46,174 nt of DNA from a bacterium (lineage in GTDB: Bacteria > Krumholzibacteriota > Krumholzibacteriia > G020349025), in NCBI GenBank assembly GCA_031362565.1, contig JANLSU010000011.1:1-46174 (forward strand). Direction: 5' to 3'. Below the pieces are notes generated by a model. It made no database searches. It was not told the origin of the DNA and saw only the letters and a program-made list of their open reading frames with translations. How positions within the stretch are numbered: position 1 is the first letter of the stretch; every line of letters begins with the position of its first letter. This document shows positions 107 through 43,168 of the stretch, one piece after another. Both the position numbers and the translations under genes were made by a program.

Positions 107-1561
107 TCACCGCGCGACGACGATCTTGCGGGTTTCGGAGCGTTCGACGCTGTCCATTCGGTAGACGTAGATGCCGTTGGCGACGCGGGTGCCGCGGTCG
201 TCGCGGGCATCCCATGCGTAGCGGTGCAGGCCGGCGCTCAGTGTGCCGGACTGGAGCGTGCGGACGACGCGGCCGCGAATGTCGAAGATGCGCAGGCGCG
301 TCTCACCGGAAGTGGCGAGGCCGAAGGCGATCGACGTGCCGTCGCGCATCGGATTGGGGCGCGCGATCAGCGGGCCGACTTCCGACACGGAAGCGACAGG
401 ATCGGCAGGTGTGGGGGCGCCGATTGTCGGCCGTGCGATGGAGTCGTCCTTGTCACACGGGTCATGGTGGTGCACGAGTTTCAATTTGGTTTTCTTCTGG
501 ATGAGTTCGGCTTGAGTCGTCGCCTGCATCACGTCGACGTTGAAAACGAGGTCGAGCAGGTTGCCGGTACTGATCAGCGTCGATTTTTCGATGCCGCGGC
601 CCTGGATCTCGAATTCCCACGAGCCCTCGGACCGCTGCAGTTCGAAGCGCGTCAAGGCGCCCTTGGCGTTGGAATTCTTGTAGATCCAGCAGGGACCATC
701 GTGGTGATCGTCGCACTGGTTGTCGCGCGCTTCGCGCACCGAACCGGCGGGCAAGGTTTGCGTGTAGTCGCCGATTTGGATCTGGAACTCGAGTTCTTCC
801 GGGTCGATCGCGCCGAACGTCGCGCACGGAATGAACTCGCCCTTGATGTGGAACTTGCCGTCCGTGTCGCGGAATGCGTGCTTGGGGTGTTTCGGGAAGT
901 CGAACGACGCACTCTCGATGCCGAAGCACTGCACCGGGCAGTCGGGGGCCGCGACCTTCTGGGCTTGTAGAAAGCCGTCGACGCTCATGGCGTAGCCGTC
1001 CGGCAAGCTTTGGCCCGGGGCCTCGCGCGACACCACGCCGCCGAAGGTGAAGCCCTCGGCGCGCGATGCATGCAGCGTCTCGAGGCAACTTCCCTCATCG
1101 AAAGTCACGGTGCCTTCGTAGGCACCGGTCGTCGTTTCCGAGTCGAAGAAGAGCGCGAAACTGGTCAGCGGCCCGCCCAGACACAAGGTGCCGTTGGTGA
1201 ACGTCGATGGCACCGTGGCATTCGGCGGCCCGGCGCTGAAGTCGTGGTCGCGCGACGGATCGCGGTAAAAATCGATGCGGCCGCCGCTGAAGGTCACGAG
1301 CAGAACGCCCTCGCCGCCATCCTGCGGCGCGTCGGCAACGAGGCCGGTGATATAGCCGGTCATTTCTTCAGCGGCAAAATCGACTCCGAGTGCGGCCGAG
1401 GCCTGATCGACCACGACCGGAATGCGCAGGGAATCGCCAGCTACGAACGGCAGCGACACACCACTCTTGAACGCGTACCCCTGGTAGTCGAGCGTCGTGG
1501 CATGCACCGGGGCAAGGTGCGCCGAGACGACAATGAGTGCGAGAGTTGTAATGCGACGCAT
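107..1561 (-). CDS. Secreted multidomain protein with C-terminal FlgD-Ig/T9SS-like domain (484 aa)
   Basis: Start re-set to ATG 1561 (AAGGTGG RBS). Signal peptide MRRITTLALIVVSAHLAPVHA. C-terminus PNPM..TSIAFGL..RLRIFDIRGRVVRTL..WDARDDRG..VANGIYVYRM..RKIVVAR is a typical FlgD-Ig tail. Confidence 0.8.
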   Translation of the reverse strand: MRRITTLALIVVSAHLAPVHATTLDYQGYAFKSGVSLPFVAGDSLRIPVVVDQASAALGVDFAAEEMTGYITGLVADAPQDGGEGVLLVTFSGGRIDFYRDPSRDHDFSAGPPNATVPSTFTNGTLCLGGPLTSFALFFDSETTTGAYEGTVTFDEGSCLETLHASRAEGFTFGGVVSREAPGQSLPDGYAMSVDGFLQAQKVAAPDCPVQCFGIESASFDFPKHPKHAFRDTDGKFHIKGEFIPCATFGAIDPEELEFQIQIGDYTQTLPAGSVREARDNQCDDHHDGPCWIYKNSNAKGALTRFELQRSEGSWEFEIQGRGIEKSTLISTGNLLDLVFNVDVMQATTQAELIQKKTKLKLVHHHDPCDKDDSIARPTIGAPTPADPVASVSEVGPLIARPNPMRDGTSIAFGLATSGETRLRIFDIRGRVVRTLQSGTLSAGLHRYAWDARDDRGTRVANGIYVYRMDSVERSETRKIVVAR

Positions 1562-1793
1562 GACGACCACCTTGTGACGGCTCTGCAGGTTGTCCTGACC
1601 CAACGGGGATGGGGGCGGAAGAATAGCACTTTCTTGACGACAACGGGCGCAAACCCGCCTCTGGCATGGCTCTCCGGTCCGCGTCGTGGCCGGGACCGCC
1701 GCCATCGGACGGGTGGTCGCGCATGGTCGCGAGTCGCATCCAATCGCGTTCCGGCGGAAATGGCGCAACTCACAGAATTCGTTTCTCTTACAG

Positions 1794-28425: not shown

Positions 28426-29328
28426 ATGATGCATCACGCTGAACGGCGCGTTTTCGGGATGATTGGAGCGTTGTCTTCGCTGCTCTGCCTCGCGGCGGGC
28501 AGCGCGGCGGCCGAGGTACCGCACCTCGATCACGTCATCGTCGTCATCATGGAGAATCACAGTTACGACCAGACGCGCGCCCTGCCGTCCACTGCGAGCC
28601 TCATCGTCGCCGGCGCCTCGTTCGCCGATTCACGCGCCATCACCCATCCGTCGCAGCCGAACTACATTGCGCTGTGGTCGGGCAGCACCCAAGGCGTCAC
28701 GAGTGATGCCTGCCCGCCGCCGGGCTCGCCTTATTCCACCGAAAATCTCGGGCATGCGTGCGAGGCCGCCGGGCTGACGTGGAAGGCCTATTCGGAAGAC
28801 TTGCCGGCCCCCGGGTCCATGGTGTGCACCGCCAACAGCTCGAAGTACGCCCGCAAGCACGCACCCTGGACGCAGTTCGCGAACCTGGCGCACGACAACG
28901 AGCGCCCCTATACCGATTTCACGACCGACGTCGCGCAGAGTGCATTGCCGAATTTGGCGTTCGCAATTCCGAACCAGTGCAATGACCAGCATAGCTGCGC
29001 GCTCGCAACCGGCGATGCATGGTTGGCGCAGAATATCCCGGCGATGCTGCAAGCGGTCGGTCCGCGCGGTCTGGTCGTCTTGACGTACGACGAAGATGAC
29101 CACAGCGCCGGCAATCAGATTCTGACCGTATTCTTGGGTGCCCTGGTTCGCCCCAACTACATCTCGGCGCAGCCGGTGACGCACTATACGATTCTGCGCA
29201 CGCTGTGTGACGGCCTGGGGATCACGCCGTTCGCAGCCGCCGCAACCGAAACGCCCATCACCGACGTCTGGGCCGCGACGCCCGTCGCACTACAGGCCTG
29301 GACGACGATGAAGCTGCTCTACCGATAG
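28426..29328 (+). CDS. Secreted phosphoesterase-family (acid phosphatase SapM/AcpA-like) protein with W-x3-K-x-LYR tail
   Basis: DHVIVVIMENHSY, THPSQPNYIAL, YARKHAPW, PNQCNDQH..GDAWL, LTYDE, THYTILRTL; signal peptide; ends PVALQAWTTMKLLYR. Confidence 0.88.
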   Translation: MMHHAERRVFGMIGALSSLLCLAAGSAAAEVPHLDHVIVVIMENHSYDQTRALPSTASLIVAGASFADSRAITHPSQPNYIALWSGSTQGVTSDACPPPGSPYSTENLGHACEAAGLTWKAYSEDLPAPGSMVCTANSSKYARKHAPWTQFANLAHDNERPYTDFTTDVAQSALPNLAFAIPNQCNDQHSCALATGDAWLAQNIPAMLQAVGPRGLVVLTYDEDDHSAGNQILTVFLGALVRPNYISAQPVTHYTILRTLCDGLGITPFAAAATETPITDVWAATPVALQAWTTMKLLYR

Positions 29329-30035
29329 AGTGCCTTGGTCTCGCCCCAGGTGCGGGTGGCGGCAGCAACCACGCCGCCGCAGCCCGGCTTGTCGGCGTTG
29401 TGCCCGAACGACGTCCACTCGGACGTCGCGGATGGATTGCTCGAGCCATCACCGAACCAGAGCACCGGGCTCGGGCTTTCCGTTGAGGTGAGGAGAGAGC
29501 CGGTCAGAATCTGGATGCCGTCCTGCCGCACTTCGATGGCACCGGTTGAAACGATCACTTCGATCCGATACAGGTGGAACGCATCATCCGTATCGACATT
29601 GGCAGTCAGGCCGCGCGTCGCAGAAGTGCCTTGCAAGAGATAGGCTTCGTCGGCGCCGAGTTGCAGGATGTTCCAGCGGTTCGGCTGGGTGCAGAAGGCA
29701 ACGCCGACGCCGCTGCGCACAACGCTGGTCGTCGAATTGATGACGAACCGAACCCGCGCCTCGATCACCAGGCTGTCGGGGATCGCAAGGTCGGCCGCCG
29801 TCTGCTCGTAGTACATGCCGTTGGCGGGCACCGTCGTCGTCAGTGTCAGCACCCCGCCTGCGAGCACCGGGTCTTCCGCCGCGTTGTCCTGCAGCGTCAG
29901 TTCACAGAGCGAGTTCGGAAACGTCGCCGAGGCAGCGAGCCACTGCAGGTTGATCGGTGGAGCGGCGTCCGCTGGTTGAGCGCCGTGGAGCACCAGAACC
30001 GATGCGACGAGGATGGCCACAGAACGCGTCTTCAT
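29319..30035 (-). CDS. Hypothetical secreted beta-sandwich (ConA/LamG-like) protein with W-x3-K-x-LYR tail
   Basis: GGGGGA RBS; signal peptide MKTRSVAILVASVLVLHGAQPADA; DAFHLYRIEV..VRQDG and LWFGDGS patterns; ends ATRTWGETKALYR. Confidence 0.75.
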   Translation of the reverse strand: MKTRSVAILVASVLVLHGAQPADAAPPINLQWLAASATFPNSLCELTLQDNAAEDPVLAGGVLTLTTTVPANGMYYEQTAADLAIPDSLVIEARVRFVINSTTSVVRSGVGVAFCTQPNRWNILQLGADEAYLLQGTSATRGLTANVDTDDAFHLYRIEVIVSTGAIEVRQDGIQILTGSLLTSTESPSPVLWFGDGSSNPSATSEWTSFGHNADKPGCGGVVAAATRTWGETKALYR

Positions 30036-30328
30036 GAATGTCCCCCTGAGTTGTCGGAATAGCGCCTGGCAGCGCCTCGATCACCGAGGCTCGATCCGCC
30101 GCACGCCGACACATCGTGATCCTTGATGCATCCAAGAGTAGCGCACTCCCCACGCATGGTGCTACCGCCTCCCGTCCTTCCACTGCCTCTCGCAAACGTC
30201 GGGGCACTCGCTCCGCGCTCGACTTCTGATGCGGTCTCAGGAATACTCCGGGCGGACTCGTGTCGAAGCATCGCGCGCCGGCGCGGGCTTGGTGCGCCGA
30301 CCGGCATTTTCAAGCGAACGGGATCCGG

Positions 30329-31273
30329 ATGTCCGACCTGCCTTTCGTCTGCCGACGCTGTCACGGCGAACTGCGGCCGGCGAGCCCACCGGCGCTCGTC
30401 TGCGCGGCGTGCGAAATTCGGTTTCCGGTTGTCGAAACGATTCCGCGCTTCGTGCCGGCCGACACCTACGCGGCGTCCTTCGGTTTCCAATGGAACCGCC
30501 ACGCACGCACCCAGATCGATCGCTTCAACGGCTATCGGTTCAGTCACGAACGTTTCTTTGCGGTGACGGGCTGGCCCACCCGCCTGCACGGTGAACGCAT
30601 CCTGGAAGCCGGTTGCGGCGCCGGCCGTTTTACCGAAGTGGCGCTCGAAACCGGCGCCACCGTTCATGCGTTCGACTACAGCAACGCGGTCGATGCCAAT
30701 CTGGCCAACAACGGCGGCGGCGCACGTTTGCAGCTCTTTCAAGCCAGCATCTTCGACATCCCACTGCCGGCAGCGAGCTTCGAGCGTATTTTCTGTTTTG
30801 GCGTGCTGCAACACACGCCCGATCCAGAGCGGGCCTTCCGCGCGCTCGTGCCGTTCCTGAAACCCGGCGGGTCGATTGCGATCGACGTGTACAAGAAGCA
30901 CTGGCAGACGGTTCTCAATACGAAGTACTTGTTGCGGCCGTTCACGCGCCGCATGGACATGCGCACGCTGCACGACCGCGTCGAGCGCTGGACGCCGCCC
31001 TTGGTGCGCGCCCAGGACCGCATTCGCGGCCTCATCGGCGCCAAACTCGCGTTTGGACTCGTGCCGGTGAGTTCGGCTCCGTGGCCGGGCCTGCGCTCCG
31101 AGGACCGCCTGCAATGGTGTGTCCTCGATACCTTCGACATGTACGCACCGGCGCACGATCATCCTCAAACGATCGGGGCGGTGCGCCGTTGGATGCGGGA
31201 GGCCCAGCTCGTCGACGTCGAGGTGGAGTACGGGCCGAACGGGATCAACGCCCGGGGGCGCAAGCCCCAGTGA
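30329..31273 (+). CDS. Class I SAM-dependent methyltransferase with N-terminal Trm112-like Zn ribbon
   Basis: CRRC..CAAC..FPVVETIPRF; SFGFQW; ILEAGCGAGRF; GVLQHTPDP..LKPGG; LDTFD.YAP. Confidence 0.85.
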   Translation: MSDLPFVCRRCHGELRPASPPALVCAACEIRFPVVETIPRFVPADTYAASFGFQWNRHARTQIDRFNGYRFSHERFFAVTGWPTRLHGERILEAGCGAGRFTEVALETGATVHAFDYSNAVDANLANNGGGARLQLFQASIFDIPLPAASFERIFCFGVLQHTPDPERAFRALVPFLKPGGSIAIDVYKKHWQTVLNTKYLLRPFTRRMDMRTLHDRVERWTPPLVRAQDRIRGLIGAKLAFGLVPVSSAPWPGLRSEDRLQWCVLDTFDMYAPAHDHPQTIGAVRRWMREAQLVDVEVEYGPNGINARGRKPQ

Positions 31274-31325
31274 CCGGCGGCACGGCGCCGGGCGCTGCAC
31301 GGGCGATCGGACGCTTGGAGTCTTG

Positions 31326-33089
31326 ATGGCGGCAGCCGGGAACGAACCCGATCGCGCGCATCGATCCCTGAGGTCGCGGGCGCTCTATTTGTTGCCGGGC
31401 GTCGCAACCGGCCGGCGTTACCGCAGGGCGTGGTTGCGCCACGACCTGGCGGCCGGGCTCGTGTTGACGGCGTTCTTGGTGCCGCAGGGCATGGCCTATG
31501 CCGAGCTGGCCGGCCTGCCGGCGGTCAACGGGTTGTACGCGACACTCGTGCCCTTGGTCATTTATGCGCTGTTCGGCCCGTCGCGCATTCTCGTTCTCGG
31601 GCCCGACTCGGCGATCGCGCCGCTCATTGCCGCCGCCGTCATCCCGGTCGCGGGGATCGACTTTGGGAGCCGCGTGGCACTCGCCAGCCTGCTCGCGCTG
31701 ATGGTTGGAACACTCCTCGTCATCGCGTCGTTTGCGCGCCTCGGTTTTCTCACCGATCTGCTCTCGAAGCCGGTTCGGACCGGATACTTGGCGGGCATCG
31801 CGTTCGTCGTCATCGTTCAGCAAGTGCCACGGCTGCTTGGCTATTCGGTGGACGCGGCGGATTTCCTCGGCAAGTTCGTGGGCCTTGTCCGCGGCCTTCC
31901 CAATCTCGACGGTCCGACGACCGCCATCGGGCTGCCGTGTTTGGCCGCCATCCTGGTCCTGCGGCGGCGGGCACCGCGTATTCCCGGCGTGCTTGTCGCG
32001 GTGGGCGGTGCGACTCTGGCGTTCGTCCTGTTGCATCCCGGCGTCAAAACGCTCGGCCAAGTGCCGGAAGGTCTGCCGGATTTCATCCTCCCCCACCCGC
32101 ATGCCGCGGACTGGTTGCCGCTCGTTGCAAGCGCGCTGGCCATTGCCTTGCTGGTGTTTGCCGACACCACCGTACTGTCGCGCAGCTATGCGTCCAAACT
32201 CGGCGAACGCGTCGACCAGAGCCAAGAGCTGGGCGCCCTGGGAGCTGCGAATCTGGCTACGAGCCTGTTCGGCGGCTTCCCCATTTCGGTCAGTTCATCC
32301 CGCACTCCGGTCGCTGAAGCGGCGGGGGCGCGAACCCAACTGACCGGCCTTGTCGCTGCCGCAGCGCTCGGACTCGTTCTCGCCTTCGGCACGGGATTTC
32401 TGCACATCGTGCCGCAGGCGGCATTGGCGGCGGTCGTGATTGCGGCCGGCATCGGGCTGGTCGAAGTCGCGGTTTTCAGGCGCCTGCGCCAGGTGAGCCG
32501 CCCGGACTTCGGGCTCGCGATCGCGGCGTTCACGGGCGTGGCCCTGCTGGGTGTCTTGCGCGGCGTCGGCATCGCGATCGCGTTGTCGGTGTTCGCCGTT
32601 CTCGAACGAGCCTGGCACCCCTACCATGCCGTCCTCGCGCGCGTCGCCGGTTTGAAGGGTTATCACGATCTGGCGCGCCATCCGCAGGGCCGGCAAGTCC
32701 CCGGCTTGTTGTTGTTCCGGTTCGACGCGCCGCTTTTCTTCGCCAATGCCAACGTGTTCCGCGACCGCATTCTGCGCGCCGTCGCCGACGCCGGGTCGCC
32801 GCTCCACCGGGTGGTCATCGCCGCCGAACCGATGACCGACGTCGACACGACGGCGGCGGATATTCTGGATGACGTGCGCATCGATTTCGCACGCCGCGGC
32901 ATCGAGCTGGTGTTCGCGGAATTGAAGGATCCCGTCAAGGACACCCTGGCCCGTTACGGACTCGTGGATCGCATCGGACCGGGACGTTTTTACCCCACCG
33001 TTGGCTCGGCAGTGCACGCGTACGTGAACGAGTACCGCATCGAGTGGCGAGATTGGGAAGACGAATCGGGCGCCACCGAATCGACGTGA
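31326..33089 (+). CDS. SulP/SLC26 inorganic anion transporter with STAS domain
   Basis: DLAAGL..VPQGMAYAELAGLP, NGLYA, FGPSR, QELGALG.AN, SSSRT, GARTQL; STAS RFDAPLFFAN..DVDTTA; GGAG RBS. Confidence 0.93.
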   Translation: MAAAGNEPDRAHRSLRSRALYLLPGVATGRRYRRAWLRHDLAAGLVLTAFLVPQGMAYAELAGLPAVNGLYATLVPLVIYALFGPSRILVLGPDSAIAPLIAAAVIPVAGIDFGSRVALASLLALMVGTLLVIASFARLGFLTDLLSKPVRTGYLAGIAFVVIVQQVPRLLGYSVDAADFLGKFVGLVRGLPNLDGPTTAIGLPCLAAILVLRRRAPRIPGVLVAVGGATLAFVLLHPGVKTLGQVPEGLPDFILPHPHAADWLPLVASALAIALLVFADTTVLSRSYASKLGERVDQSQELGALGAANLATSLFGGFPISVSSSRTPVAEAAGARTQLTGLVAAAALGLVLAFGTGFLHIVPQAALAAVVIAAGIGLVEVAVFRRLRQVSRPDFGLAIAAFTGVALLGVLRGVGIAIALSVFAVLERAWHPYHAVLARVAGLKGYHDLARHPQGRQVPGLLLFRFDAPLFFANANVFRDRILRAVADAGSPLHRVVIAAEPMTDVDTTAADILDDVRIDFARRGIELVFAELKDPVKDTLARYGLVDRIGPGRFYPTVGSAVHAYVNEYRIEWRDWEDESGATEST

Positions 33090-33215
33090 CCCCGTGGCCG
33101 GCCCCCAGGGTGCCGGCATTCCCCGCTCGTGCTATCCTGGCACCGATCTTGTTGCATTCGACGCCGCACAGAATGCAACCGCCTGGCCGCCTTCCAACCA
33201 AAGAGGACGAGCCCG

Positions 33216-34172
33216 ATGCGCTCGACGTTTTTGACATCCGGAATCGCGGTCGGAGCCGTGCTCGCCTTGTTGGCGGGCTGCGGCGACGACTCAAGCAGCC
33301 CACAGCCCCACGTCGCCAGTACCGCGAACGGCCAGTACCTCGTGGAACACGTTGCGGGGTGCGGTGACTGCCATACGCCAATCGACGCGGCCGGGCATCC
33401 CTGGCAGTGGATGGTCTTGGCGGGCGGCGTGCGGTTCGACTTGCCGTTCGGCGCCGTTTACACCCGCAACATCACGCCCGACAGCGCAACGGGAATCGGC
33501 AGCTGGACCGACGCCGAGATCGTCACGGCAATCCGTACCGGCATCTCACCGGCGCACGCGTATCCGAATGCCGACGACGCAAAGCTCTTTCCCATCATGC
33601 CGTACTGGCTCTATGGGCACCTGAGCGACAACGACGCGCAGGATATTGTCGCGTTCCTGCGGACGGTCACGCCGGTGCACAACGCGGTACCCGCGGATTC
33701 GATTCCGCCGGCCGTGCGCGCCACCTGGCCGCTCCAGCCAGGCATCCCGAGCGCCACGCCCGCTTCGAGCGCCAAGGAACGCGGCAAGTACTTGGTGACG
33801 ATCGCCGGATGCATCGACTGTCACACGGTGTCGAAGTCGGACGTGACCGGCATTCCAACCGACCCGGGCGTCGCCACCGAGTTGTTCCTCGCCGGCGGCC
33901 GCGAGTTCGAGATCGGTCCGCTCGGCACGGTGCATTCCAAGAACCTCACACCCGATCCGACCACCGGCATCGGCACCTGGACGGCGGCCCAAATCGATTC
34001 GGCAATCGCCTACGGCATCGATGACGAGGGCCGGCTCTTGTGTCCGCCGATGCCATGGCCGGTGTACCAAGCCATGACGGCAAGCGACCGCTCCGATATC
34101 GTCGCGTACCTGAAGGGCATTCCGCCCATCGTCAACGCGGTGCCGGAAGACTCAACGATCTGCCCGCGCTGA
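33216..34172 (+). CDS. Diheme c-type cytochrome lipoprotein (duplicated gluconate/alcohol-dehydrogenase cytochrome-like domain)
   Basis: Lipobox LAGC; CGDCH and CIDCH, each followed by LAGG..N(I/L)TPD..TGIG.WT and a distal MP; AGAGGA RBS before ATG 33216. Confidence 0.88.
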   Translation: MRSTFLTSGIAVGAVLALLAGCGDDSSSPQPHVASTANGQYLVEHVAGCGDCHTPIDAAGHPWQWMVLAGGVRFDLPFGAVYTRNITPDSATGIGSWTDAEIVTAIRTGISPAHAYPNADDAKLFPIMPYWLYGHLSDNDAQDIVAFLRTVTPVHNAVPADSIPPAVRATWPLQPGIPSATPASSAKERGKYLVTIAGCIDCHTVSKSDVTGIPTDPGVATELFLAGGREFEIGPLGTVHSKNLTPDPTTGIGTWTAAQIDSAIAYGIDDEGRLLCPPMPWPVYQAMTASDRSDIVAYLKGIPPIVNAVPEDSTICPR

Positions 34173-34179
34173 GGGAGCC

Positions 34180-35565
34180 ATGGCCGCAGCGCACTATGAA
34201 CTCGCAGTCATCGGCAGCGGTCCCGCCGGACAAAAAGCCGCGATTGCCGCCGCCAAGCTGCGCAAGAAGGTCACCGTCATCGACCGCAAGGAGATGATGG
34301 GTGGCGGTTCGGTGCACACGGGCACCATCCCGAGCAAGACGGTCCGCGAGGCGATTCTCTATCTGACGGGCTTCCGCCAGCGTTCTTTCTATGGCAAGAG
34401 CTACACCGTCAAAGAGAACATCTCGGTCGCGGATCTGTCGCTGCGCGTCACGGCTGTCATCGAGCGCGAGATGGCGGTCGTCAACGACCAACTGCGGCGC
34501 AACGGCGTCATCTTGACGCCCGGAGCGGCGCGTTTTATCGATCCGCATACGCTGGAAGTGACGGGTACCGAGGGCACCACCCGCGTGACCGCCGACTTCA
34601 TCGTCATCGCGTGTGGGACGCGGGCGGCGCGCGATGCCAGCATCCCCTTCGACGGCCAGAACATCCTGGTCGCCGACGAGCTGGGCTTGCTGGAAAAGTT
34701 ACCGCGCGAGATCATTGTCGTCGGAGCCGGAGTCATCGGGCTCGAATACGCGTCGATGTTCACGGCTCTGAATATTCCGGTGACACTGATCGAACAGCGG
34801 CCGACAATGCTCGACTTCGTCGACCACGAAATCGTCGAGGCGCTCAGCTACCACATGCGGCAGCGCAATGCGACTTTCCGTCTGGGCGAAAAGGTGACCG
34901 AGGTGACGATCGATGCGGCGGGCGACGTGCACGCGCATCTGGCGAGCGGCAAGCGGATCTGTGCCGATACATTGCTCTACACCGTCGGGCGGCAGACGAA
35001 TGCCGACTTGCTCGACCTGCCTGTTGCCGGGCTCGCGGCCGACGACCGCGGCCGGATAACCGTCAACAAGGACTTCCAAACCAGCGTGCCGCACGTCTAT
35101 GCCGTCGGCGACGTGATCGGGTTTCCGGCCCTCGCCTCGACCTCGATGGAACAAGGGCGGCTGGCGAGCAACCACATCTTCGGGGTGGCGGCGAAGGAAC
35201 GCGAGTTGATGCCATACGGCATCTACACCATTCCGGAAATCTCGATGGTGGGTAAGACCGAGCAGGAGCTGACACAGGCGAGCATTGCGTACGAGACCGG
35301 TGTGGCGAAATACGATGAAGTGGCGCGCGGTATGATCGTCGGCGACAATACCGGCATGCTGAAACTGTTGTTCTGCCCCGACTCACGCCAGCTCCTGGGC
35401 GTGCATGTGATCGGCGAGAGCGCGGCGGAGATCATCCACATCGGGCAAGCGGTGATGGCGCTCGGCGGCACCATCGAATACTTCCGCGACACCGTCTTCA
35501 ACTACCCGACGTTCGCCGAGGCGTATAAAATCGCGGCGCTGAACGGTCTCAACAAACTGCGCTGA
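34180..35565 (+). CDS. sthA: Soluble Si-specific NAD(P)+ transhydrogenase
   Basis: IGSGPAGQKAA, HTGTIPSKTVRE, GAGVIGLEYAS, GDVIGFPALASTSMEQGR, YTIPEISMVG, FNYPTFAEAYKIAALNGLN. Confidence 0.93.
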   Translation: MAAAHYELAVIGSGPAGQKAAIAAAKLRKKVTVIDRKEMMGGGSVHTGTIPSKTVREAILYLTGFRQRSFYGKSYTVKENISVADLSLRVTAVIEREMAVVNDQLRRNGVILTPGAARFIDPHTLEVTGTEGTTRVTADFIVIACGTRAARDASIPFDGQNILVADELGLLEKLPREIIVVGAGVIGLEYASMFTALNIPVTLIEQRPTMLDFVDHEIVEALSYHMRQRNATFRLGEKVTEVTIDAAGDVHAHLASGKRICADTLLYTVGRQTNADLLDLPVAGLAADDRGRITVNKDFQTSVPHVYAVGDVIGFPALASTSMEQGRLASNHIFGVAAKERELMPYGIYTIPEISMVGKTEQELTQASIAYETGVAKYDEVARGMIVGDNTGMLKLLFCPDSRQLLGVHVIGESAAEIIHIGQAVMALGGTIEYFRDTVFNYPTFAEAYKIAALNGLNKLR

Positions 35566-35585
35566 TAACCACACTGGAGACGACG

Positions 35586-37781
35586 ATGCAATTGCTACGC
35601 TCTTGGCGCCGCCGATTTGCCGCATTGGCGATCTTGGCGGCAGTTTTTTGGGGATCCGGCGCTGCGGCGGCGAGCGATTCCGGAGCCACGCCTTTGGCGG
35701 CCTCGGCCGGCGCCCCACGGACCGGGATTCTCTACGACCGGGTTCTGCCGCTTTCACATCTCGAGAGCTACGACGGCAGTGCCGCAGCGCCTGCAGCCAG
35801 CCGGGCGTGCTGGAGCCAGATCGTCTTCGAGCTGACGCAGGCGTCGATCGCCAAACCGGCCTGGCCCAGCCACCAAGCGGTGCTCGAGACGGCCCGGGGG
35901 GCAATTGCGCGCGGCGTGGTACCGGTCGCGATTCTGGACTTCGAATATGAACGATCGACGAACCCGGACGGTTCGCCGTCGGCGACACCGACACCTGCCG
36001 TGCATGAGGCATTTGCGGCGGCGGCGCTCGCCGAATCGACCCACCGCGGTGCCGGCGTCACCTTCGCCTTCGAATCCGAGTGGTATGTGACCAATCGCAG
36101 CGCCAAACCACGCACGCTGGCGGTCGACTTCGGTGACGGGCTCGGGTGGCGCACCGTGCGGTGGGGCGACCGCCCACAGGTGCATTACGACCGGACCGGA
36201 CACAAGGTCATTCGCCTGCGGATTACGGACACCGCGGGCCGCACGCTGCAGAGCACTCTTCCATTCGAAGTCCTGCATCTCGAGACGCCGGCCCCGAACG
36301 ACACGCTGCACATCGTCGCCGGCATCCCGTACCTCGGGACCGCGGGGCAGGGTGACGCGTACGTGTATCTGGCACCCGGGCACGCGGCCCTCACCAACCC
36401 GATCGTCGTTCTTGAAGGCTTCGATCTCGACAACAGCATGTTCTGGGACGAGCTGTACCAGATGCTGAACGAGCAAGGCCTCATCGAGTCACTGCGTTCC
36501 CAAGGGTTCGATGCGGTGGTGCTCAATTTCGCCGATGCCACCGACTACATCCAGCGCAACGCCTTTGTCGCCAGCGAATTGATCACCCAGGTCGAGGCGG
36601 CGATCGCTCCGAATGCCGACATGGCACTGGTCGGCGCCAGCATGGGCGGGCTCGTGGGACGCTACGCGCTCGCGTACCTCGAAGCGCACGGCCCCGCACC
36701 GCGCGTTCGTACATTTGTATCCTTCGATTCGCCGCAGCGCGGCGCCAACATCCCGCTCGGAGTTCAATATTGGGTGCAGTTCTTCGCCGACCAGTCGACG
36801 GACGCGGCGTTCCTTCGTGATCGCCTCAACACGCCGGCGGCGCGGCAGATGCTGGTTTATCACTTCACCACCCCGCCGAGCGGTACGGCGGCGAGCGATC
36901 CGCTCCGCACGCAACTTCTCGCCGACTTCGCCGTTGTCGGGGGATACCCTGGGCACCCACGTTTGGTGGCCATCGCCAACGGCAGCGGCTCGCGTGCAGG
37001 CCAGGGCTTCGCTCCTGCAGAGCAAGTCGTGCGCTACGAGTACTCGAGCTTTCTCGTCCACATCACGGGCAACGTGTGGGCGGTGCCCAACGGCGGCAGC
37101 GCGACGGTGTTTCGCGGCATCATCGACTATTTGTTCCCGCCGCCGGAGAGTTCGACCACCGTCACGGTGACCGGCACCGCTCCGTACGACAACGCGCCTG
37201 GAGGTTGGCGGAGCTCGATGGCCGACATGGATGCCACGCCGGCGCCGTTCGGCGACATCGTGGCGCTCTACCCCAACCACTGCTTCATTCCGACGACGAG
37301 CGCGCTCGATCTGAACACCACGGACCTCTTCTATGACATCGCCGGCGATGCGCAATTGTTGACGCGGACCCCGTTCCAGGCGGTCTACTTCCCCGCCGTG
37401 AACCAAGGGCACGTCAGCATCACGCCGGAGAACGCCACTTGGCTCCTGCAGGAACTGGTGCCGGCCCCAACCGCGGTTGCCGACGGCACCGGACGCGCAC
37501 CGGCGGCGCTCGTGCTCCACCCGAACGTCCCCAATCCGTTCAATCCATCGACACAGATCGAATTCGAGCTGCCGCACGCCGGCAACGTCGAGATCGCGGT
37601 GCGCGATGTGCGCGGCCGGCACGTCGCGACACTCTTGCACGGTTGGCTCGCGGCGGGCCGTCATGATGTCCGGTGGAATGGCACGACGGAATCCGGCACG
37701 CACGCCGCCTCCGGCGTCTACGTCTGCACGCTTGCAAGCCCCGATGGCCGGGTCTCGCGCCGGATGGTCTTGATCGAGTAG
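35586..37781 (+). CDS. Secreted alpha/beta-hydrolase (PGAP1-like) with FlgD-Ig/T9SS-like C-terminal domain
   Basis: Signal peptide; GILYDRV, DFGDG, PIVVLEGFD, nucleophile elbow GASMGG, DSPQRGANIP, HCFIPT.SAL, NQGH; tail PNVPNPFNPST..DVRGRHVATL..WNG..SGVY. Confidence 0.85.
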   Translation: MQLLRSWRRRFAALAILAAVFWGSGAAAASDSGATPLAASAGAPRTGILYDRVLPLSHLESYDGSAAAPAASRACWSQIVFELTQASIAKPAWPSHQAVLETARGAIARGVVPVAILDFEYERSTNPDGSPSATPTPAVHEAFAAAALAESTHRGAGVTFAFESEWYVTNRSAKPRTLAVDFGDGLGWRTVRWGDRPQVHYDRTGHKVIRLRITDTAGRTLQSTLPFEVLHLETPAPNDTLHIVAGIPYLGTAGQGDAYVYLAPGHAALTNPIVVLEGFDLDNSMFWDELYQMLNEQGLIESLRSQGFDAVVLNFADATDYIQRNAFVASELITQVEAAIAPNADMALVGASMGGLVGRYALAYLEAHGPAPRVRTFVSFDSPQRGANIPLGVQYWVQFFADQSTDAAFLRDRLNTPAARQMLVYHFTTPPSGTAASDPLRTQLLADFAVVGGYPGHPRLVAIANGSGSRAGQGFAPAEQVVRYEYSSFLVHITGNVWAVPNGGSATVFRGIIDYLFPPPESSTTVTVTGTAPYDNAPGGWRSSMADMDATPAPFGDIVALYPNHCFIPTTSALDLNTTDLFYDIAGDAQLLTRTPFQAVYFPAVNQGHVSITPENATWLLQELVPAPTAVADGTGRAPAALVLHPNVPNPFNPSTQIEFELPHAGNVEIAVRDVRGRHVATLLHGWLAAGRHDVRWNGTTESGTHAASGVYVCTLASPDGRVSRRMVLIE

Positions 37782-37825
37782 GTCTCGGGTGACAACCCGC
37801 GGCCGCTTTGATAGCCTCGGCCACG

Positions 37826-40642
37826 ATGGACGGAACCACGCTGTCGCATTACAGCATCCTCGCGACACTCGGCGAGGGTGGCATGGGAGTCGTGCACCTG
37901 GCGGAAGACCAGGTGCTGCACCGCCGTGTCGCGCTCAAGGTGCTGCGTCCGGAGAGCGTCGGCGACGAAGGACGGCGGGCCCGCTTTCTGCAGGAGGCGC
38001 GCTCGGCCGCGGCGCTCAATCACCCACATATCGCCACGATCTATGAGGCGAACGAAATCAATGGCACCCTCTTCATCGCGATGGAGCTGATCGAGGGGCA
38101 GAACCTGCGCAGCGTGCTTCGCGAGCCCATGCCGCTGGCGCGCGCTCTCGACATCGCAACGCAAATGGCGGACGGACTCGCGCACGCCCACGCACACCGC
38201 GTCGTCCACCGTGACCTGAAACCCGAAAACGTCATGGTCACGCCGAGTGGCCGCGTCAAGATCCTCGACTTCGGATTGGCCAAGGTGACGACGTCGGCCC
38301 ACGACGCCACGGCGACGATGCTTGCCGCACAATCGACCGCCGCCGGACAGTTGACGGTCCAGGGCCAGTTGATGGGCACACCCGCCTACATGTCGCCCGA
38401 GCAAGCGCGCGGCCAGGAAGTGGATTTCCGCTCCGACGTCTTCTCCTTCGGCAGCACGCTGTACGAAATGTGTACCGGAAAACCCAGCTTCTTCGGGCCG
38501 TCCCAGCTCGACACGCTGAGCGCCATCCTGCACGTCAATCCACCACCGCTATCGCACGTCGTCACCGGGGCGCCACCGGCGCTCGAAGACATCATCACCC
38601 GCTGCCTCGCGAAGGACCCGGCTGAGCGCTATGCGAGCACCGATGATCTAGTCGCCGAACTGCGCCAAGTGGATTTGACCGCCAAACCGCGCCGCCGGCG
38701 CGGCGCGATCCCACGGCGCAAATTGGCGATCGGGGCCGGCGCCACGGCAGCGAGCGCCGCCGCACTGGCCGCCGGCCTGTGGCTTCGCCCGGAGTTCGGT
38801 GGAGGAACACAGCATCCAGGCGGCGCCACTGATTGGATTCTGGTCTCCGACTTCGAGGGCACTTCGCAAACCCCGGGTTTGGCGGAAGCCTCGCGCGAAT
38901 TGGTGGCCGCAGCACTTGGACAGTCGTCGATCGTGACACCTCTGTCGCGCGCCCAAGTGCAACGCGGCGTTCGCATGGCGAGCCTTCCTGACACGACCCG
39001 GGTCACCGGGGAAGTGGCGCGTGAGCTCGCGTACCGAGCTTCAGCACACACCTATGTCGATGGGCGGGTCGACCAAATTGGGTCGAGGTACTCCATCGTG
39101 CTGAATGTCATCGATGCCAAGACCCGCAGCACGCTGCACACGTTGAATGGCGTTGCCAACACCGAAGCCGAGTTCATCGACACGATGGAGAATCTGTCGC
39201 ACCAGCTGCGCGAGAAGCTGGGCGAAAAGCGGTCCGCGGTACGTTCGACGGCCCGTTTGCGGGAAATCATCACCCCGTCATTCGATGCCTTCCAGATCTA
39301 CGTGCGGGCCATCGAGATGCATCGGCAGCGCAAGTACAAGAACAGTAACCAGCTCTTGCGCCAAGCGCTGGCCCTCGATCCAGAGTTCGCGTCAGCCGAG
39401 AAGTTGCGAGCCCTCAACTACTCCAACCTGGGATTCGCGGATTCCGCACGCATGTCCTATGAAGCTGCTCTCCGGAGCCCGGCACGGCTGACCGCCGAGG
39501 AACGCCTCGACTTGCAATTTTTCGACGCCCGCGAAGTGCGTTACGACCTCCGAGGCGCGTTGGAGATCTCGGCTGCGCTCCTGAAGTTGCCACATGTTAC
39601 GACTGGGTTCCTGAGCAATCGCGGCACCGTACAATTCAACTTGGGACGTTACGAGGATGCGCTCGCAACCCAAGATTCAGGGATCGCGAGATCGCTCTTT
39701 GGCGCTTCGGAGCTTCTGCGGTTGAACAACTTCAAGACGCTGATGCAGCTGGGGCGGTACGACCGCGCCCGGGCGGTGCGCGACAGCTTGACTGGGTCGA
39801 ACGCGGCGATCGCCGCGCTCGAGTACGCAGTGTGCCGCACTGACTGGCAGGGCGCCGACAGTTTAGCAGCGCGATTGCAACACGATCCGAGCGCCGACAA
39901 CCGCTTCCAGGCCGCGTTGGCCGTCGCGGCAATGTCGGCGCGCCGCGGGGCGATCACTGTGGCAGCGCACAATCTCGAAGCGATGATCTCACAGGCACCG
40001 AACCGTTTCTGGGCAGACGTGGCGCGGATCGCGCGAGTTCAGCTTGGCATCTGCGCCGGAACACCCGTGCCACCGAATGCGCCGTTCCTGGCCGACACCA
40101 CCATGGCCTGCACGATCGTGCGCGGGATCGCGGCGGCCGCCGCCGGCGACATGCCGGCACAGTCCCCCATCCGCCAAAGTGCTCGGAACCGCGGCGGCCC
40201 AGAAAAGCGGCGGTACGAAGCTGATCTTCAGGTCATGGACGCGTGGGGGGCCGCAAGCGCCGGAAACCTCGAAACCGAACTGCCCGGGCTGGAACCGGCG
40301 ATGAGAAGCGGAACGGGCCCCTGGTTCTGCGGCCGGGTGCCATTGCGCTGGCTCATCGCGACAGCCCACGATCGCGCCGGGCGCACGGATGCGGCGATTC
40401 GCGGTTACGAGCTGGTCCTGAGTTCGGAACGGCTCCATCAGGATGCTTGGATGTGGTGGCCACTGACGCAGCCGTTCGCACACTTGCGGCTGGCCGCTCT
40501 GCTGGCGAAGGCAGGCAGGCGCGCTGATGCCGAATCGCACGCCCGCGCGGTTCTCGAGAGTTTGACCGAGCCCGACTCCCAGGGCGCGCGGCTTGTGGCT
40601 GAAGCACAAGCCGTACTTGCGGGGGCACCGCCGCAGCCGTAA
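37826..40642 (+). CDS. Hanks-type Ser/Thr protein kinase with TM segment and C-terminal TolB-N-like/TPR region
   Basis: LGEGGMGVV, VALKVL, HRDLKPENVM, KILDFGLAK, GTPAYMSPEQ, DVFSFG; TPR-like ALALDPEFA repeats. Confidence 0.93.
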   Translation: MDGTTLSHYSILATLGEGGMGVVHLAEDQVLHRRVALKVLRPESVGDEGRRARFLQEARSAAALNHPHIATIYEANEINGTLFIAMELIEGQNLRSVLREPMPLARALDIATQMADGLAHAHAHRVVHRDLKPENVMVTPSGRVKILDFGLAKVTTSAHDATATMLAAQSTAAGQLTVQGQLMGTPAYMSPEQARGQEVDFRSDVFSFGSTLYEMCTGKPSFFGPSQLDTLSAILHVNPPPLSHVVTGAPPALEDIITRCLAKDPAERYASTDDLVAELRQVDLTAKPRRRRGAIPRRKLAIGAGATAASAAALAAGLWLRPEFGGGTQHPGGATDWILVSDFEGTSQTPGLAEASRELVAAALGQSSIVTPLSRAQVQRGVRMASLPDTTRVTGEVARELAYRASAHTYVDGRVDQIGSRYSIVLNVIDAKTRSTLHTLNGVANTEAEFIDTMENLSHQLREKLGEKRSAVRSTARLREIITPSFDAFQIYVRAIEMHRQRKYKNSNQLLRQALALDPEFASAEKLRALNYSNLGFADSARMSYEAALRSPARLTAEERLDLQFFDAREVRYDLRGALEISAALLKLPHVTTGFLSNRGTVQFNLGRYEDALATQDSGIARSLFGASELLRLNNFKTLMQLGRYDRARAVRDSLTGSNAAIAALEYAVCRTDWQGADSLAARLQHDPSADNRFQAALAVAAMSARRGAITVAAHNLEAMISQAPNRFWADVARIARVQLGICAGTPVPPNAPFLADTTMACTIVRGIAAAAAGDMPAQSPIRQSARNRGGPEKRRYEADLQVMDAWGAASAGNLETELPGLEPAMRSGTGPWFCGRVPLRWLIATAHDRAGRTDAAIRGYELVLSSERLHQDAWMWWPLTQPFAHLRLAALLAKAGRRADAESHARAVLESLTEPDSQGARLVAEAQAVLAGAPPQP

Positions 40643-40764
40643 CCGCGGACGGGCTCCCGAACGGCGACCTTGCCCGTTAGGCGAAGTATGCACTACCCTT
40701 GGTTCTGACCCGCCCCCGAGAGTGTCGTGTCACCTTGTGTTTCCTCAGCCGTTAGGGGCCCCTC

Positions 40765-41595
40765 ATGCATCGCTCGCTCGTTGTATTCGCTCTCGCTCTT
40801 GGAATGGCCCAGGCCGCCGGGGCCGCAACCATCACGGCCTCCGCCAGTGTCGGGCCCGCGGCAAGCCCCGTGACCGACGTGGATGGCCCGGCGATCAGCG
40901 GCCAAGTTTTGGCCGGAGTGGTCGTGCCGTTGGCGTTTCGGAACCTGGAGGCGCACTCGGCACTGGACGTCGACGGGAACTCTGCCGTGTCCCTCACCGG
41001 TGTCTATCTTTCGGCCGGCAAGCCGCACGTCGCCGGAATCGATTACCCGCAGTTGACTGACGCCGTGACAACCTGGACCACCACCGTCACCAACAACACC
41101 GGCTCGTCGCACCCTTATTTCTACTCGTTCTTGCTGCATCCGTTTACGCTCGAGAACTATGACAACGGCATTGGCAACACCGACCCGCTGGCAACGGAGA
41201 CCTCGTTCGCCGTCGAAGTACGCGCCAATGGCAATACGGTGTTCCAAGCGGGCGCGCTCCTCCGGGGCGCGCTTACCAGCTACGAGCTCACGAAGACAGG
41301 AACGGATCTGGGTGGCGTGTTCGCGAACAACGAATTCGCGATTCGCTACGACTTCGCCCAGCACCAAGCCAGGATCGCGCTCGGCAACGCGGCGCCGGGC
41401 GAAAGCATCACCATCGAGACGAAGCTCATCGCGCACACCAAAGCCACTCAAGACGGCTCCGGCGGCAACGTCACGATGGGCGATCCCCTCGACCTCAAGG
41501 GCGATCCGGGCATCTCGTCGGTGATTTTCGGAATCGACGACTCGGTGGGCGCTGCTCCGTTGTCGTGGAGTGCGACGAAGAGCCTCTACCGCTGA
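40765..41595 (+). CDS. Hypothetical secreted protein with W-x3-K-x-LYR tail
   Basis: AGGGG RBS; signal peptide MHRSLVVFALALGMAQAAGA; beta-rich body; ends SVGAAPLSWSATKSLYR; followed by a terminator. Confidence 0.78.
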   Translation: MHRSLVVFALALGMAQAAGAATITASASVGPAASPVTDVDGPAISGQVLAGVVVPLAFRNLEAHSALDVDGNSAVSLTGVYLSAGKPHVAGIDYPQLTDAVTTWTTTVTNNTGSSHPYFYSFLLHPFTLENYDNGIGNTDPLATETSFAVEVRANGNTVFQAGALLRGALTSYELTKTGTDLGGVFANNEFAIRYDFAQHQARIALGNAAPGESITIETKLIAHTKATQDGSGGNVTMGDPLDLKGDPGISSVIFGIDDSVGAAPLSWSATKSLYR

Positions 41596-41611: not shown

Positions 41612-43168
41612 TCAAGGCCTCCTGCCACCGACGGGTGGCAGGAGGCTTTTTGTTTGGTTGGCGGTCAGAGTGCGCGTGAGATGTGGATCGATCGCGGCCG
41701 CTTCGCGGAGGAACGGCTCGGCGGCGGCAGCCTGGTGGTACTGAATGCGCTGTAAGCCGGCGCCGACCAGGCCCGCGACCAGATTGTGACGCGCTTTAGC
41801 CTCGAGGTCAGGGTCGGCGGGCCGCCGCGCCAGAACGCGCCGGCTGACGCGAATCGCGCCGTCCGGATCGTTGCTGTTCAAGAGAAACACCGCCAAGTTG
41901 TTCTGCGCCGGCAGGTACTCCGGAAATGCCTCGCCCAACGATTGCATGGCCTGGTCCTGCGTCAAACTGGGATGGGCGTGGGTCATGCCGAGACCGGCTG
42001 CCACCGCGATGAGCGCCGCCCAGCTCAGACCCTGCGGCACCCAGCGCCGGATGGTGCCGTGACGGACCGGTGAGATCTCTCTGCCGCCATCGAGGCCGAG
42101 AAGAACGCGCGTCGGCTTCTCCTTCACCTTCCAGATGAAACTGTCGTAATAGAAGTGCAGCAGCGTCGAGGCCGCGAGTGTCGCGGTGAACAACGCGCTC
42201 AGTGTTGCGGACGGCAACTTGGGCAGCAAGCTGAGAGCACCGTAGGCGAACACCATGCCGACATAGAGCACTACGAGGGCTCGCCGGTCACGGAAGACGT
42301 AGCGCGTGAAGGCGCCGACCTTGGCATCGGTCTCGACACGGCGGCGGTTGTACGTCCACACGATGGCGAGATATTGCACGTCGTGGAACACTTCGAAGAG
42401 TGCGATCCCGACCAGCATGTTGCTGACGACCGCATTGGTGTACCACCAGAAGCCGATACTCGTCGCCAAGAGCAGCAATTTGACCGCGCTCGGGTGTTGG
42501 CCGGCGCGGCGCATGCGGATCATGTTGGCAAGAAAGGCCAAGGTCACCAGACCCGTCGCCGCGCCCCACACGACTTGCAGGTCGTGAACGAGGCCGGGCG
42601 GCACGCTCGGCCCGCCGCTGGCGTAGAACTTCTGCAAAATGTGATGCAAGCGCGACGTCGAGAAAAAGACCCCGGCGCCGTACCAGGTGATGCACATCCA
42701 CTGGTCGAGCCGCACGGTCAACGCTCCGAACGAGCGCACTTTGGCGTCATAGATCCGCAGGAAGCCGTGCGTCTGCATGAGGCCATGCCACACGCCCCAG
42801 AAGTACGTGATCAAGACGATCGGGCTCATGACGGCGTCGTCGAGCGCAAAGACGGCGCACAGCGTCACCAAGAACACCGGCGCAACGATGAAGCGGGTGC
42901 GGAAGCGCGCCCACAGGGCGCGATCCCCATACGCCCGCATCATGCCGGGAAGATGGTGGCCGAGGGCGCCGAATGCCATGACCAGCCCGTAGAGCGTCTT
43001 GCCGCTCCACACGCGCTCGGCGACGAGCGCCACGGGCAGGATGAGCGCCGGAGTGCCGATGAAAAGCAGCAGGTCCTGCCAAGGACGCAGGATCCACCGC
43101 GACACCGGCAACGGAATGGCAGCACCCGCGGACGCGGCGCCATCGGCGCGTGCTTCCACGAGGCGCAT
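41612..43168 (-). CDS. Polytopic membrane protein with spaced His motifs and a short C-terminal TPR region
   Basis: Many TM segments; GHHLPG, WHGLMQTHGF, FHDVQYL, LHFYYDSFIWK; AQNNLA..AIR and ARHNL TPR-like helices. Confidence 0.72.
   Translation of the reverse strand: MRLVEARADGAASAGAAIPLPVSRWILRPWQDLLLFIGTPALILPVALVAERVWSGKTLYGLVMAFGALGHHLPGMMRAYGDRALWARFRTRFIVAPVFLVTLCAVFALDDAVMSPIVLITYFWGVWHGLMQTHGFLRIYDAKVRSFGALTVRLDQWMCITWYGAGVFFSTSRLHHILQKFYASGGPSVPPGLVHDLQVVWGAATGLVTLAFLANMIRMRRAGQHPSAVKLLLLATSIGFWWYTNAVVSNMLVGIALFEVFHDVQYLAIVWTYNRRRVETDAKVGAFTRYVFRDRRALVVLYVGMVFAYGALSLLPKLPSATLSALFTATLAASTLLHFYYDSFIWKVKEKPTRVLLGLDGGREISPVRHGTIRRWVPQGLSWAALIAVAAGLGMTHAHPSLTQDQAMQSLGEAFPEYLPAQNNLAVFLLNSNDPDGAIRVSRRVLARRPADPDLEAKARHNLVAGLVGAGLQRIQYHQAAAAEPFLREAAAIDPHLTRTLTANQTKSLLPPVGGRRP
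41617..41655 (+). terminator. Rho-independent terminator
   Basis: GCCTCCTGCCACC-GACG-GGTGGCAGGAGGC (perfect 13-bp stem) followed by TTTTTGTTT, about 20 bp after the stop at 41595. Confidence 0.9.

Follow-up and report, generated by a model that had tools for sequence, protein, structure and literature searches.

The window analysed here is a 46,174-nucleotide contig (JANLSU010000011.1, assembly GCA_031362565.1) of a bacterium from the phylum Krumholzibacteriota, and it contains three genes for exported proteins that end in the same short C-terminal sequence, called the tail below. The genes and their tail copies are:

28426..29328, plus strand: phosphoesterase of the acid-phosphatase type (PF04185), exported, with the tail and a signal peptide; possible starts at 28426 and 28459
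29269..29328, plus strand: tail copy 1, 19 residues and stop, WAATPVALQA-WTTMKLLYR
29319..30035, minus strand: exported 238-residue protein with tail, no recognised family
29319..29378, minus strand: tail copy 2, GGVVAAATRT-WGETKALYR and stop; its final 10 bases are shared with tail copy 1 on the opposite strand
40765..41595, plus strand: exported 276-residue protein with tail, no recognised family
41536..41595, plus strand: tail copy 3, DDSVGAAPLS-WSATKSLYR and stop

The coordinates of the three tails and the register of their W, K and LYR residues agree with a preliminary description of this DNA. A hydrophobic, signal-peptide-like stretch was read from the sequence at the N terminus of all three proteins, as had been claimed. 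Their bodies are indeed unrelated, with no mutual matches and matches only on other contigs, and the body of the 276-residue protein matches part of another tail protein on contig C89. The statement that no cytoplasmic protein here has the tail also held, as on the window's contig it is limited to these three open reading frames (ORFs). On the other hand, the label "ConA-like" for the 238-residue protein found no support in Pfam or NCBIfam matches, and a single-sequence fold of this protein was uninformative (predicted local distance difference test, pLDDT, of 30). The proposed extent of the motif was correct in its register and not in its start, because the conserved unit begins seven residues before the W, with V-[GA]-V-[EQ]. 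Similarly, LYR is terminal in the window proteins and not genome-wide, where the stop directly follows position +8 in 88 of 132 tails, and 1–12 residues follow the R in the other 44.

The genome (5.41 Mb, 65% GC) was scanned with a 19-column weight matrix, trained on its own hits, which was scored on 50,273 stop-to-stop ORFs of at least 60 residues. The data showed 126 C-terminal matches that score at least 20 bits, with the range from 10 to 20 bits empty, while in a control scan with ORFs shortened by 40 residues the score never reached 10. Six further ORFs with longer overhangs bring the number to 132, which is about 3% of the genome's genes (about 4,100 called), and the bodies of these proteins fall into 77 unrelated families. 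The consensus of the 19-residue unit is V-[GA]-V-[EQ]-x-x-[TS]-W-[SG]-x-V-K-x-L-[YF]-R. Upstream of the W (97%) the most frequent residues are V at −7 (57%), G or A at −6 (37% each), V at −5 (70%), E or Q at −4 (40% and 17%) and T or S at −1 (43% and 32%), while downstream they are S or G directly after it (45% and 36%), V or I at +3 (60% and 17%), K at +4 (97%), L at +6 (75%), Y or F at +7 (81% and 18%) and R at +8 (72%). The lysine is replaced by arginine in 3% of tails, against a genome-wide content of 2.4% K and 8.0% R.

The enrichment of the tail on signal-peptide proteins, which the preliminary description expected, was clearly seen. A home-made signal-peptide rule, which gives many false positives, was passed by 87 of 113 tail genes (77%) against 1163 of 3725 other genes (31%; odds ratio 7.4), and by 154 of 203 genes for proteins with a type IX secretion system (T9SS) C-terminal domain (CTD) of type A. 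The remaining 19 tail ORFs were missed by the gene finder, and many failures of the rule show a signal peptide at another start. The tail proteins are small, with a median length of 237 residues versus 753 for CTD proteins and none of the 113 passengers above 500, and they contain 2.2% cysteine versus 0.9%. Their genes cluster, as 21 of 113 are adjacent to each other versus 7.5 after shuffling; runs of 3–5 paralogues are found on contigs C11, C29, C63 and C89. The body family with the most members (25) has a domain that is also found inside large CTD proteins.

The first two tail genes of the window overlap at their 3′ ends by 10 bases (29319–29328), where CTACCGATAG reads as Y-R-stop on both strands. 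A comparable convergent overlap of tails is present in another genome (G001:C22:22299-22308). This near-palindromic overlap, as well as four orphan copies of the tail, which lie in short frames and belong to no proper gene (C85:33978, C131:88565, C50:26103 and C55:102254), could point to a DNA element, such as a repeat, a recombination site or a terminator-linked motif, that happens to read as a tail peptide. Such an origin is extremely improbable, and we rejected it on the grounds of codon usage, stop variety and uninformative 3′ sequence: the choice of synonymous codons at the conserved positions is about that of the genome, each of the three stop codons is represented, and the 45 bases that follow the stop hold at most 0.07 bits. 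The motif also keeps its frame and strand with signal-peptide genes. The tail is conserved as protein, not as DNA. The orphan copies, two of which lie just behind CTD genes, are likely remnants of replaced or broken genes. Directly 3′ of the third tail gene of the window, between convergent genes, there is a terminator-like 16-pair stem–loop followed by a T run (41614–41649).

The shape of the tail was analysed by sequence periodicity and modelling. The hydrophobic moment of residues W−1 to W+8 peaks at 100–110 degrees, and the net charge is positive in 111 of 132 tails. In an AlphaFold2 model of the window phosphoesterase (65-row alignment), 238 of 271 residues have pLDDT above 90, while the linker 257–261 is below 50 and leads to a separate C-terminal helix, 262–270, with pLDDT of about 59. 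The free helix on a flexible linker suggests a signal rather than a part of the enzyme. The tail is predicted to form a short extended segment (V-x-V) and then an amphipathic helix on a flexible linker, in which W0, V3, L6 and Y7 would share a face with K4 and R8 beside it. A transmembrane (TM) segment after the signal peptide was predicted in only one of 113 tail proteins. The moment, the charge and the model thus agree with the earlier impression of a short amphipathic helix that lacks a TM helix or immunoglobulin (Ig) fold. A sequence search of the PDB with the tail profile gave one chance-level match (E 1.8), and in the ESM Atlas the tail alone was placed near one unnamed cluster (0.77). 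The 276-residue protein was placed there near unnamed Eisenbacteria and Krumholzibacteriota clusters (0.81–0.90) and near a cluster with 29% PEP-CTERM (0.80), which are leads only.

By its moment peak, net charge and modelled helix the tail has the basic amphipathic character of membrane anchors. The C-terminal helices of MinD and Escherichia coli PBP5 are amphipathic membrane anchors and are likewise short, basic and placed behind a flexible linker. The tail could in the same way be an in-plane anchor, which binds phospholipid or lipopolysaccharide directly and has no protein receptor. The aromatic W and Y/F on one face, the separate helix on its linker in the model, and the avidity that tandem copies would add are all consistent with such an anchor. 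We nevertheless consider it improbable, because W and K, each at 97%, are invariant over three phyla, apparently beyond the usual need of lipid binding, because even the Poribacteria form of the tail described below retains the upstream [GASP]-V-[ED] element, and because the helix has only nine residues. MinD and PBP5 anchors, unlike the tail, are not known to be position-invariant over hundreds of proteins that are unrelated, or to swap places with a secretion domain.

Curated models were compared with the three window proteins, with 146 tail proteins (54 of the genome's 132 and 92 from other genomes) and with 35 proteins with a Poribacteria-type tail. No model of Pfam or NCBIfam release 20.0 fell on the tail in any of these proteins, and TIGR04183, PF18962 and PF13860 gave no match on the three window and 146 other tail proteins. 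The tail therefore matches no curated sorting-domain model of these two databases, which leaves standing the novelty assumed for it at the outset. No description of it was found in the full-text literature, though subscription journals, supplements or a newer NCBI model might mention one. A search by motif spelling returned only one unrelated virology paper, the searched terms were absent from the sorting-signal preprint of Haft (10.1101/2023.06.07.544157), the matching passages of a paper on Effluviviacota (PMC11323493) do not mention T9SS or C-terminal signals, and "choice-of-anchor" is undefined in PMC11878542. We regard the tail as a likely, previously undescribed address tag for the cell surface.

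Signals of the PEP-CTERM/exosortase, LPXTG, GlyGly-CTERM and MYXO-CTERM types are, like the tail, short modular C-terminal tags on diverse exported proteins. They also share cargo domains with it, namely choice-of-anchor N and W, NHL/ScyF-like, XDD4-like and DUF4114 domains. Choice-of-anchor names mark domains that occur with several kinds of sorting signal, and the N (118 bits) and W (179 bits) domains end just before the tail. Unlike these tripartite signals, the tail has no TM helix and no basic cluster behind it, and its nine residues from W to the end hold K and R inside. It was ruled out as an exosortase substrate because of the missing TM helix; the exosortases of the genome accompany a single PEP-CTERM regular-expression match.

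To follow the tail across genomes, a strict DNA pattern ending in a stop codon was used, for which a reversed-pattern control gave 0–1 matches per genome; phylum names outside the source phylum were taken from depositors' record titles, and the genome sets overlap in part and contain kin that are not independent. The strict pattern was found in 145 of 151 genomes of the source phylum, and a tail profile in 150 of 151. In the phylum of an Eisenbacteria-titled record the tail was present in 76 of 81 genomes, and in the phylum of an Effluviviaceae-titled record (Effluviviacota) in all 31, with 22–82 strict copies each. It was found in none of 61 genomes of the phylum of a Zixibacteria-titled record and in one of 61 of a control phylum (Polyangiaceae-titled record). 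A scan of species genomes gave at least 126 loci, all in frame with the stop, and the titles among the matches listed were mostly Eisenbacteria, Krumholzibacteriota, Latescibacteria, Fibrobacteraceae or unnamed bacterium. Among 1.84 billion representative proteins the profile matched at least 1,578 clusters (50% identity) at E 0.001, and 139 of the best 150 hits had a single terminal copy. These data show that the tail is not confined to a few proteins and is phylum-wide, and the matches in the Eisenbacteria phylum, Effluviviacota and species genomes bear out the mention, in the preliminary description, of similar tails in candidate phyla of the Fibrobacteres–Chlorobi–Bacteroidetes (FCB) group.

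A related tail was found with the pattern K-L-x-T-T-W-G-x-[ILM]-K, a variant that was run on metagenomes. Of 124 matches, 103 were at most 10 residues away from the stop, for the most part on proteins of 230–320 residues with a signal peptide. The variant was preceded by [ASP]-V-[ED], an element outside the search pattern. Four of nine clusters had an organism name, and all four were Ca. Poribacteria. This cousin tail, [AS]-V-[ED]-P-x-G-K-L-x-T-T-W-G-x-[IL]-K, is present on LamG-type and other exported proteins.

The relation of the tail to the T9SS type A CTD was seen in the relatives of the window phosphoesterase. Among its best 120 relatives, the tail forms the end of 54 and a type A CTD the end of 36, and 30 have neither. 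Both signals begin right after the conserved end of the enzyme (...PITDVW-LSPSAVQPATWGRVKHLY... against ...PIDDVW-LLPTAVSEPTPRLVLSDLHPNP...), and a small residue followed by V lies within 2–8 residues of the junction in 36 of 52 tail forms and 26 of 36 CTD forms. In a core tree of 72 rows, from which 25 rows without an anchor and 23 "neither" rows were dropped and which has no support values, the tail/CTD label changes at least seven times, compared with a mean of 22 after shuffling, so that the labels are clustered and not fixed. In the whole genome 226 ORFs have a C-terminal type A CTD by our own profile and 149 by TIGR04183, and none of the 132 tail ORFs overlaps any of 230 CTD-bearing ORFs, which means that no ORF has both signals. 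A CTD-protein homologue in the same genome was found for 38 of the 132 tail bodies, and clean swaps of the two signals were seen in a subtilase pair (53% identity over 514 residues), a DNRLRE pair (48% over 200 residues) and a UGA-interrupted redoxin pair. The paralogous redoxins, one with the tail and one with a type A CTD, have an in-frame TGA at the active site (C75:33824-34400, minus strand, and C11:61100-62052, plus strand), which likely encodes selenocysteine.

Like the type A CTD (TIGR04183/PF18962, or FlgD_ig-like PF13860), which is served by SprA, PorV and the PorU sortase, the tail is a C-terminal module on unrelated Sec-exported proteins and has no TM helix. The two also share the junction in homologues, the small-residue-plus-V linker, a conserved lysine, a basic last residue and the same genomes. 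Passages of one study state that type A CTDs require a conserved C-terminal lysine motif and tolerate a C-terminal extension (PMC11285876), and the tail likewise has a conserved lysine and an overhang in a third of its copies. In the linkers of CTD proteins T-[DG]-[VA] occurs in 75 of 196 cases versus 16.6 in shuffles, and the linker half of the tail matrix is placed 16–20 residues before the PNP motif of the CTD, at the consensus pTD, in 40 of 163 proteins. Unlike the type A CTD, which is a seven-stranded, Ig-like beta-sandwich of 70–90 residues with motifs B, D and E, the tail has 19 residues, is predicted to be helical and shows no profile similarity to it; it is found on small cargo and also on lipoproteins, is sometimes repeated or internal, and is absent from the searched T9SS-bearing genomes of the Zixibacteria-titled phylum. 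An origin of the tail from CTD motif B or E was ruled out by hhalign and matrix scans. The tail is thus sorting-signal-like, but it is no member of the type A CTD or of the tripartite TM families.

The genome encodes SprA, three PorU and seven PorV-family proteins above curated cut-offs, and SprA was found in 150 of 151 genomes of its phylum. Among named proteins the nearest to its PorV, at 64% identity, has the label Ca. Krumholzibacteriia, against 41% for one labelled Ca. Eisenbacteria, which by this single gene, and not by a phylogeny, favours Krumholzibacteriota as the phylum. Of 50 genomes chosen by the tail pattern, 44 had at least five tail copies; 43 of these encode SprA, and the remaining one has six PorV-family genes. 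Four pattern-picked genomes without SprA and without an FCB-type record title have one or two copies each, and these copies in other lineages are read as stray contigs or passengers. Loci with one or two tail genes from genomes that lack SprA include one in a Kerfeldbacteria-titled record and three others; the contig of the Kerfeldbacteria-titled copy has 66 kb, which makes transfer rather than a stray contig possible. First-look counts in hand-chosen extremes, which are kin and not independent, gave 43 CTD candidates per Mb in tail-rich versus 27 in tail-poor genomes of the source phylum (15 and 15 genomes), and 35 versus 26 in a second comparison (10 and 10).

The motif sits at the C terminus, is linked to signal peptides, is exchanged with the CTD and co-occurs with SprA, PorU and PorV. 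On this basis we propose that the tail is a second, miniature, non-Ig sorting signal linked to T9SS, which directs small cargo to the cell surface, and we give this reading a probability of about 0.5. The cargo would leave the cytoplasm by Sec export, and the tail helix, with its W, K and Y, would be bound by an outer-membrane component of T9SS, for which a PorV-family barrel is the first candidate. The cargo might then cross through SprA, and PorU could cut in the linker before [GAS]-V in a part of the family. Of the dedicated export, cleavage or attachment signal that was initially supposed, the modular C-terminal tag on exported proteins remains, while the evidence points to the context of T9SS rather than of a separate machine.

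Several observations speak against this proposal. SprA was detected in all five tested genomes of the Zixibacteria-titled phylum, where the tail is missing, and in five tail-less genomes of the Eisenbacteria phylum, so T9SS does not imply the tail; the co-occurrence itself comes from three related phyla, where SprA is nearly universal. The porU–porV operon in 20 loci showed no gene tied to the tail and looks the same in tail-rich and tail-less genomes, and no obvious tail-linked feature was noticed by eye in PorV loops. Of 66 genomes from the three tail phyla, 64 have a stand-alone PorV2-like barrel (C70:23975-24967), tail-less ones included, and it also occurs in 5 of 10 Zixibacteria-phylum genomes at E 1e-20, which makes it a candidate and not diagnostic. 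The tail and the type A CTD are not homologous (hhalign probability 0.35%), the score of the linker half in CTD proteins hardly exceeds that of shuffles (4.0 versus 3.8), and the exchange of the two signals indicates a shared destination, not a shared route. T9SS signals described in the parts of the literature consulted are beta-structured and have at least 43 residues (PMC10202324, PMC11969387). For Poribacteria, in which the cousin tail occurs, passages of PMC3909097 report CTD-like domains and no T9SS structural genes in single-cell genomes. About seven tail proteins of the genome are lipoproteins by eye, compared with none of the CTD proteins. Among the best 150 hits mentioned above, eight have two copies by the matrix, two a single non-terminal copy and one is a false hit, and by eye the exceptions are for the most part lipoproteins whose copies are internal or in tandem, with domain-tail-domain-tail arrangements, rows of 2–4 tails and, in one case, a copy that directly follows the signal peptide.

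The internal, tandem and near-N-terminal copies, together with the tails on lipoproteins, would fit a rival reading, in which the tail is not a transport signal but a non-covalent docking helix. It would bind a groove on an envelope protein, such as a scaffold, a surface-layer subunit, a lipoprotein or a CTD-bearing carrier, and hold small exported proteins there or let them ride out on the partner. Dockerins, which bind cohesins, provide an analogy. The strictness of W and K, with arginine so rarely in place of the lysine, suggests a protein pocket, and the adjacency of tail genes is also in favour of docking, as is the fact that half of the outside tails have proline where the cut would be made. 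Against it, most of the top hits have a single terminal copy, and the exchange with the CTD at one junction is accompanied by strict exclusion, although a retention module could be combined with a CTD, which never happens here; moreover, no candidate scaffold was identified. On balance we regard docking as doubtful, though it deserves serious attention. A lipoprotein family without a Pfam name (weak DUF4440 match; it includes C63:16198-22176) has single, internal or up to four tandem tails.

The role of PorU in the proposed T9SS-linked sorting was considered at the level of the cleavage site. PorU is described in passages of PMC10202324 as cutting before G, A or S, and part of PMC11969387 gives PT/GI as the cleavage consensus of Prevotella. 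The putative P1′ residue is G, A or S in 86% of this genome's tails, with mostly V at P1, where a PorU site would have T, E, D or N. On the other hand, P1′ is proline in 51% of 134 outside tails, a sample biased to W-G...Y-R forms, and this proline and the mostly valine P1 are a poor fit to PorU cleavage, which also counts against the proposed route. A different use of PorU would be one in which the invariant lysine is an acyl acceptor, so that a transpeptidase (PorU or another) links tail proteins to CTD-cleaved cargo or to the cell wall in a cross-linked surface layer. PorU is a transpeptidase that resolves on amines, according to passages of PMC10202324. The genome has three porU genes, no porZ gene was recognised in the neighbourhood of porU–porV, and arginine almost never replaces the lysine, all of which would suit this idea. 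It is nonetheless highly unlikely, as a conserved lysine also serves in the recognition of ordinary CTDs, and the lysine lies in the middle of the helix.

The closest precedents for the proposed miniature signal are other T9SS signals. The short CTDs of Prevotella intermedia have 43–55 residues, can be cleaved and are modelled to bind PorV (PMC11969387). Their PT/GI consensus resembles the V/T-[GA]-V element of the tail, but they keep motifs B, D and E on three beta-strands, which are missing from the tail, and the tail does not reach half their length. Type B (TIGR04131) and type C CTDs, as far as described in parts of PMC10202324, show that one T9SS can have several signal classes and different PorV-like barrels, and the genome here has 7–8 PorV-family genes; those CTDs have about 100 residues or more, and no such model matches the 146 tail proteins. 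In the strongest form of the proposal, which we put forward only tentatively, the 19-residue helix would be a complete outer-membrane secretion tag and a fourth T9SS signal class, with a fold unrelated to Ig-like CTDs. It would be read by a T9SS without a recognisable PorKLMN motor, would be common to Krumholzibacteriota, Eisenbacteria, Effluviviacota and, as a variant, Poribacteria, and cargo would be split between the signals by size. Of the motor and ring proteins GldK, GldL, GldM and GldN, two were searched in the genome: for GldM there was no match, and the control was also silent, while GldK gave generic low hits of at best 64 bits versus a cut-off of 350, with weak controls. This T9SS perhaps works without the usual motor.

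A model of the tail would delimit much of the surface proteome in several uncultured phyla that are widespread, given that its clusters are mostly without annotation. If T9SS reads the tail, a beta-sandwich CTD is not needed for cargo recognition; this would inform the question of what is recognised by the translocon and PorV, and a peptide-sized tag would become available for binding and structural work, possibly also for surface display. If the tail is instead a docking helix, it points to an unknown envelope scaffold. The swapped pairs, in which the same enzyme has either the tail or a CTD, are ready-made test substrates.

The window also contains genes for T9SS type A CTD proteins:

107..1603, minus strand: T9SS type A CTD protein, whose N-terminal domain is 44–46% identical to two tail-bearing proteins on contig C11
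10588..13941, plus strand: large BNR/Ig protein with a T9SS type A CTD
35694..37781, plus strand: hydrolase-like protein with a T9SS type A (FlgD_ig-like) CTD

At 23627–27584 (minus strand) there are genes of cytochrome c maturation system II (CcsA-type and ResB-like) with an unannotated neighbour of 321 residues.

A conserved operon at C85:43380-59873 consists of porU, porV (54667-55650), an M6-like inactive protease gene (NF052323), genes for two uncharacterised exported proteins of 290 and 250 residues (49634-51294), an NHL protein, a 1152-residue barrel with a weak SprA match, and an Omp85 protein. Across 20 loci from four phyla, some of which are cut by the region edge, PorU, PorV, the 250-residue and the 1152-residue proteins are present in all 20, NHL in 19, the 290-residue protein in 18, the M6-like protein in 17 and Omp85 in 15, and this operon is possibly the core of non-Bacteroidota T9SS. 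In 10 genomes of the Zixibacteria-titled phylum the operon PorV ends a frame of about 870–1070 residues, with a long N-terminal extension, and not one of about 330. At C85:55836-64608, porU and a 54-residue gene, which we take to be Trm112-like, are duplicated in tandem with near-identical ends, and the third PorU (C131:37982-42988) has an N-terminal DUF4403 domain. Most of the PorV-family paralogues directly follow a single large gene of CTD type (C83, C86, C97, C63 and C123), and several are in units of TonB receptor, cargo and PorV, with C-terminal TPR domains in two.

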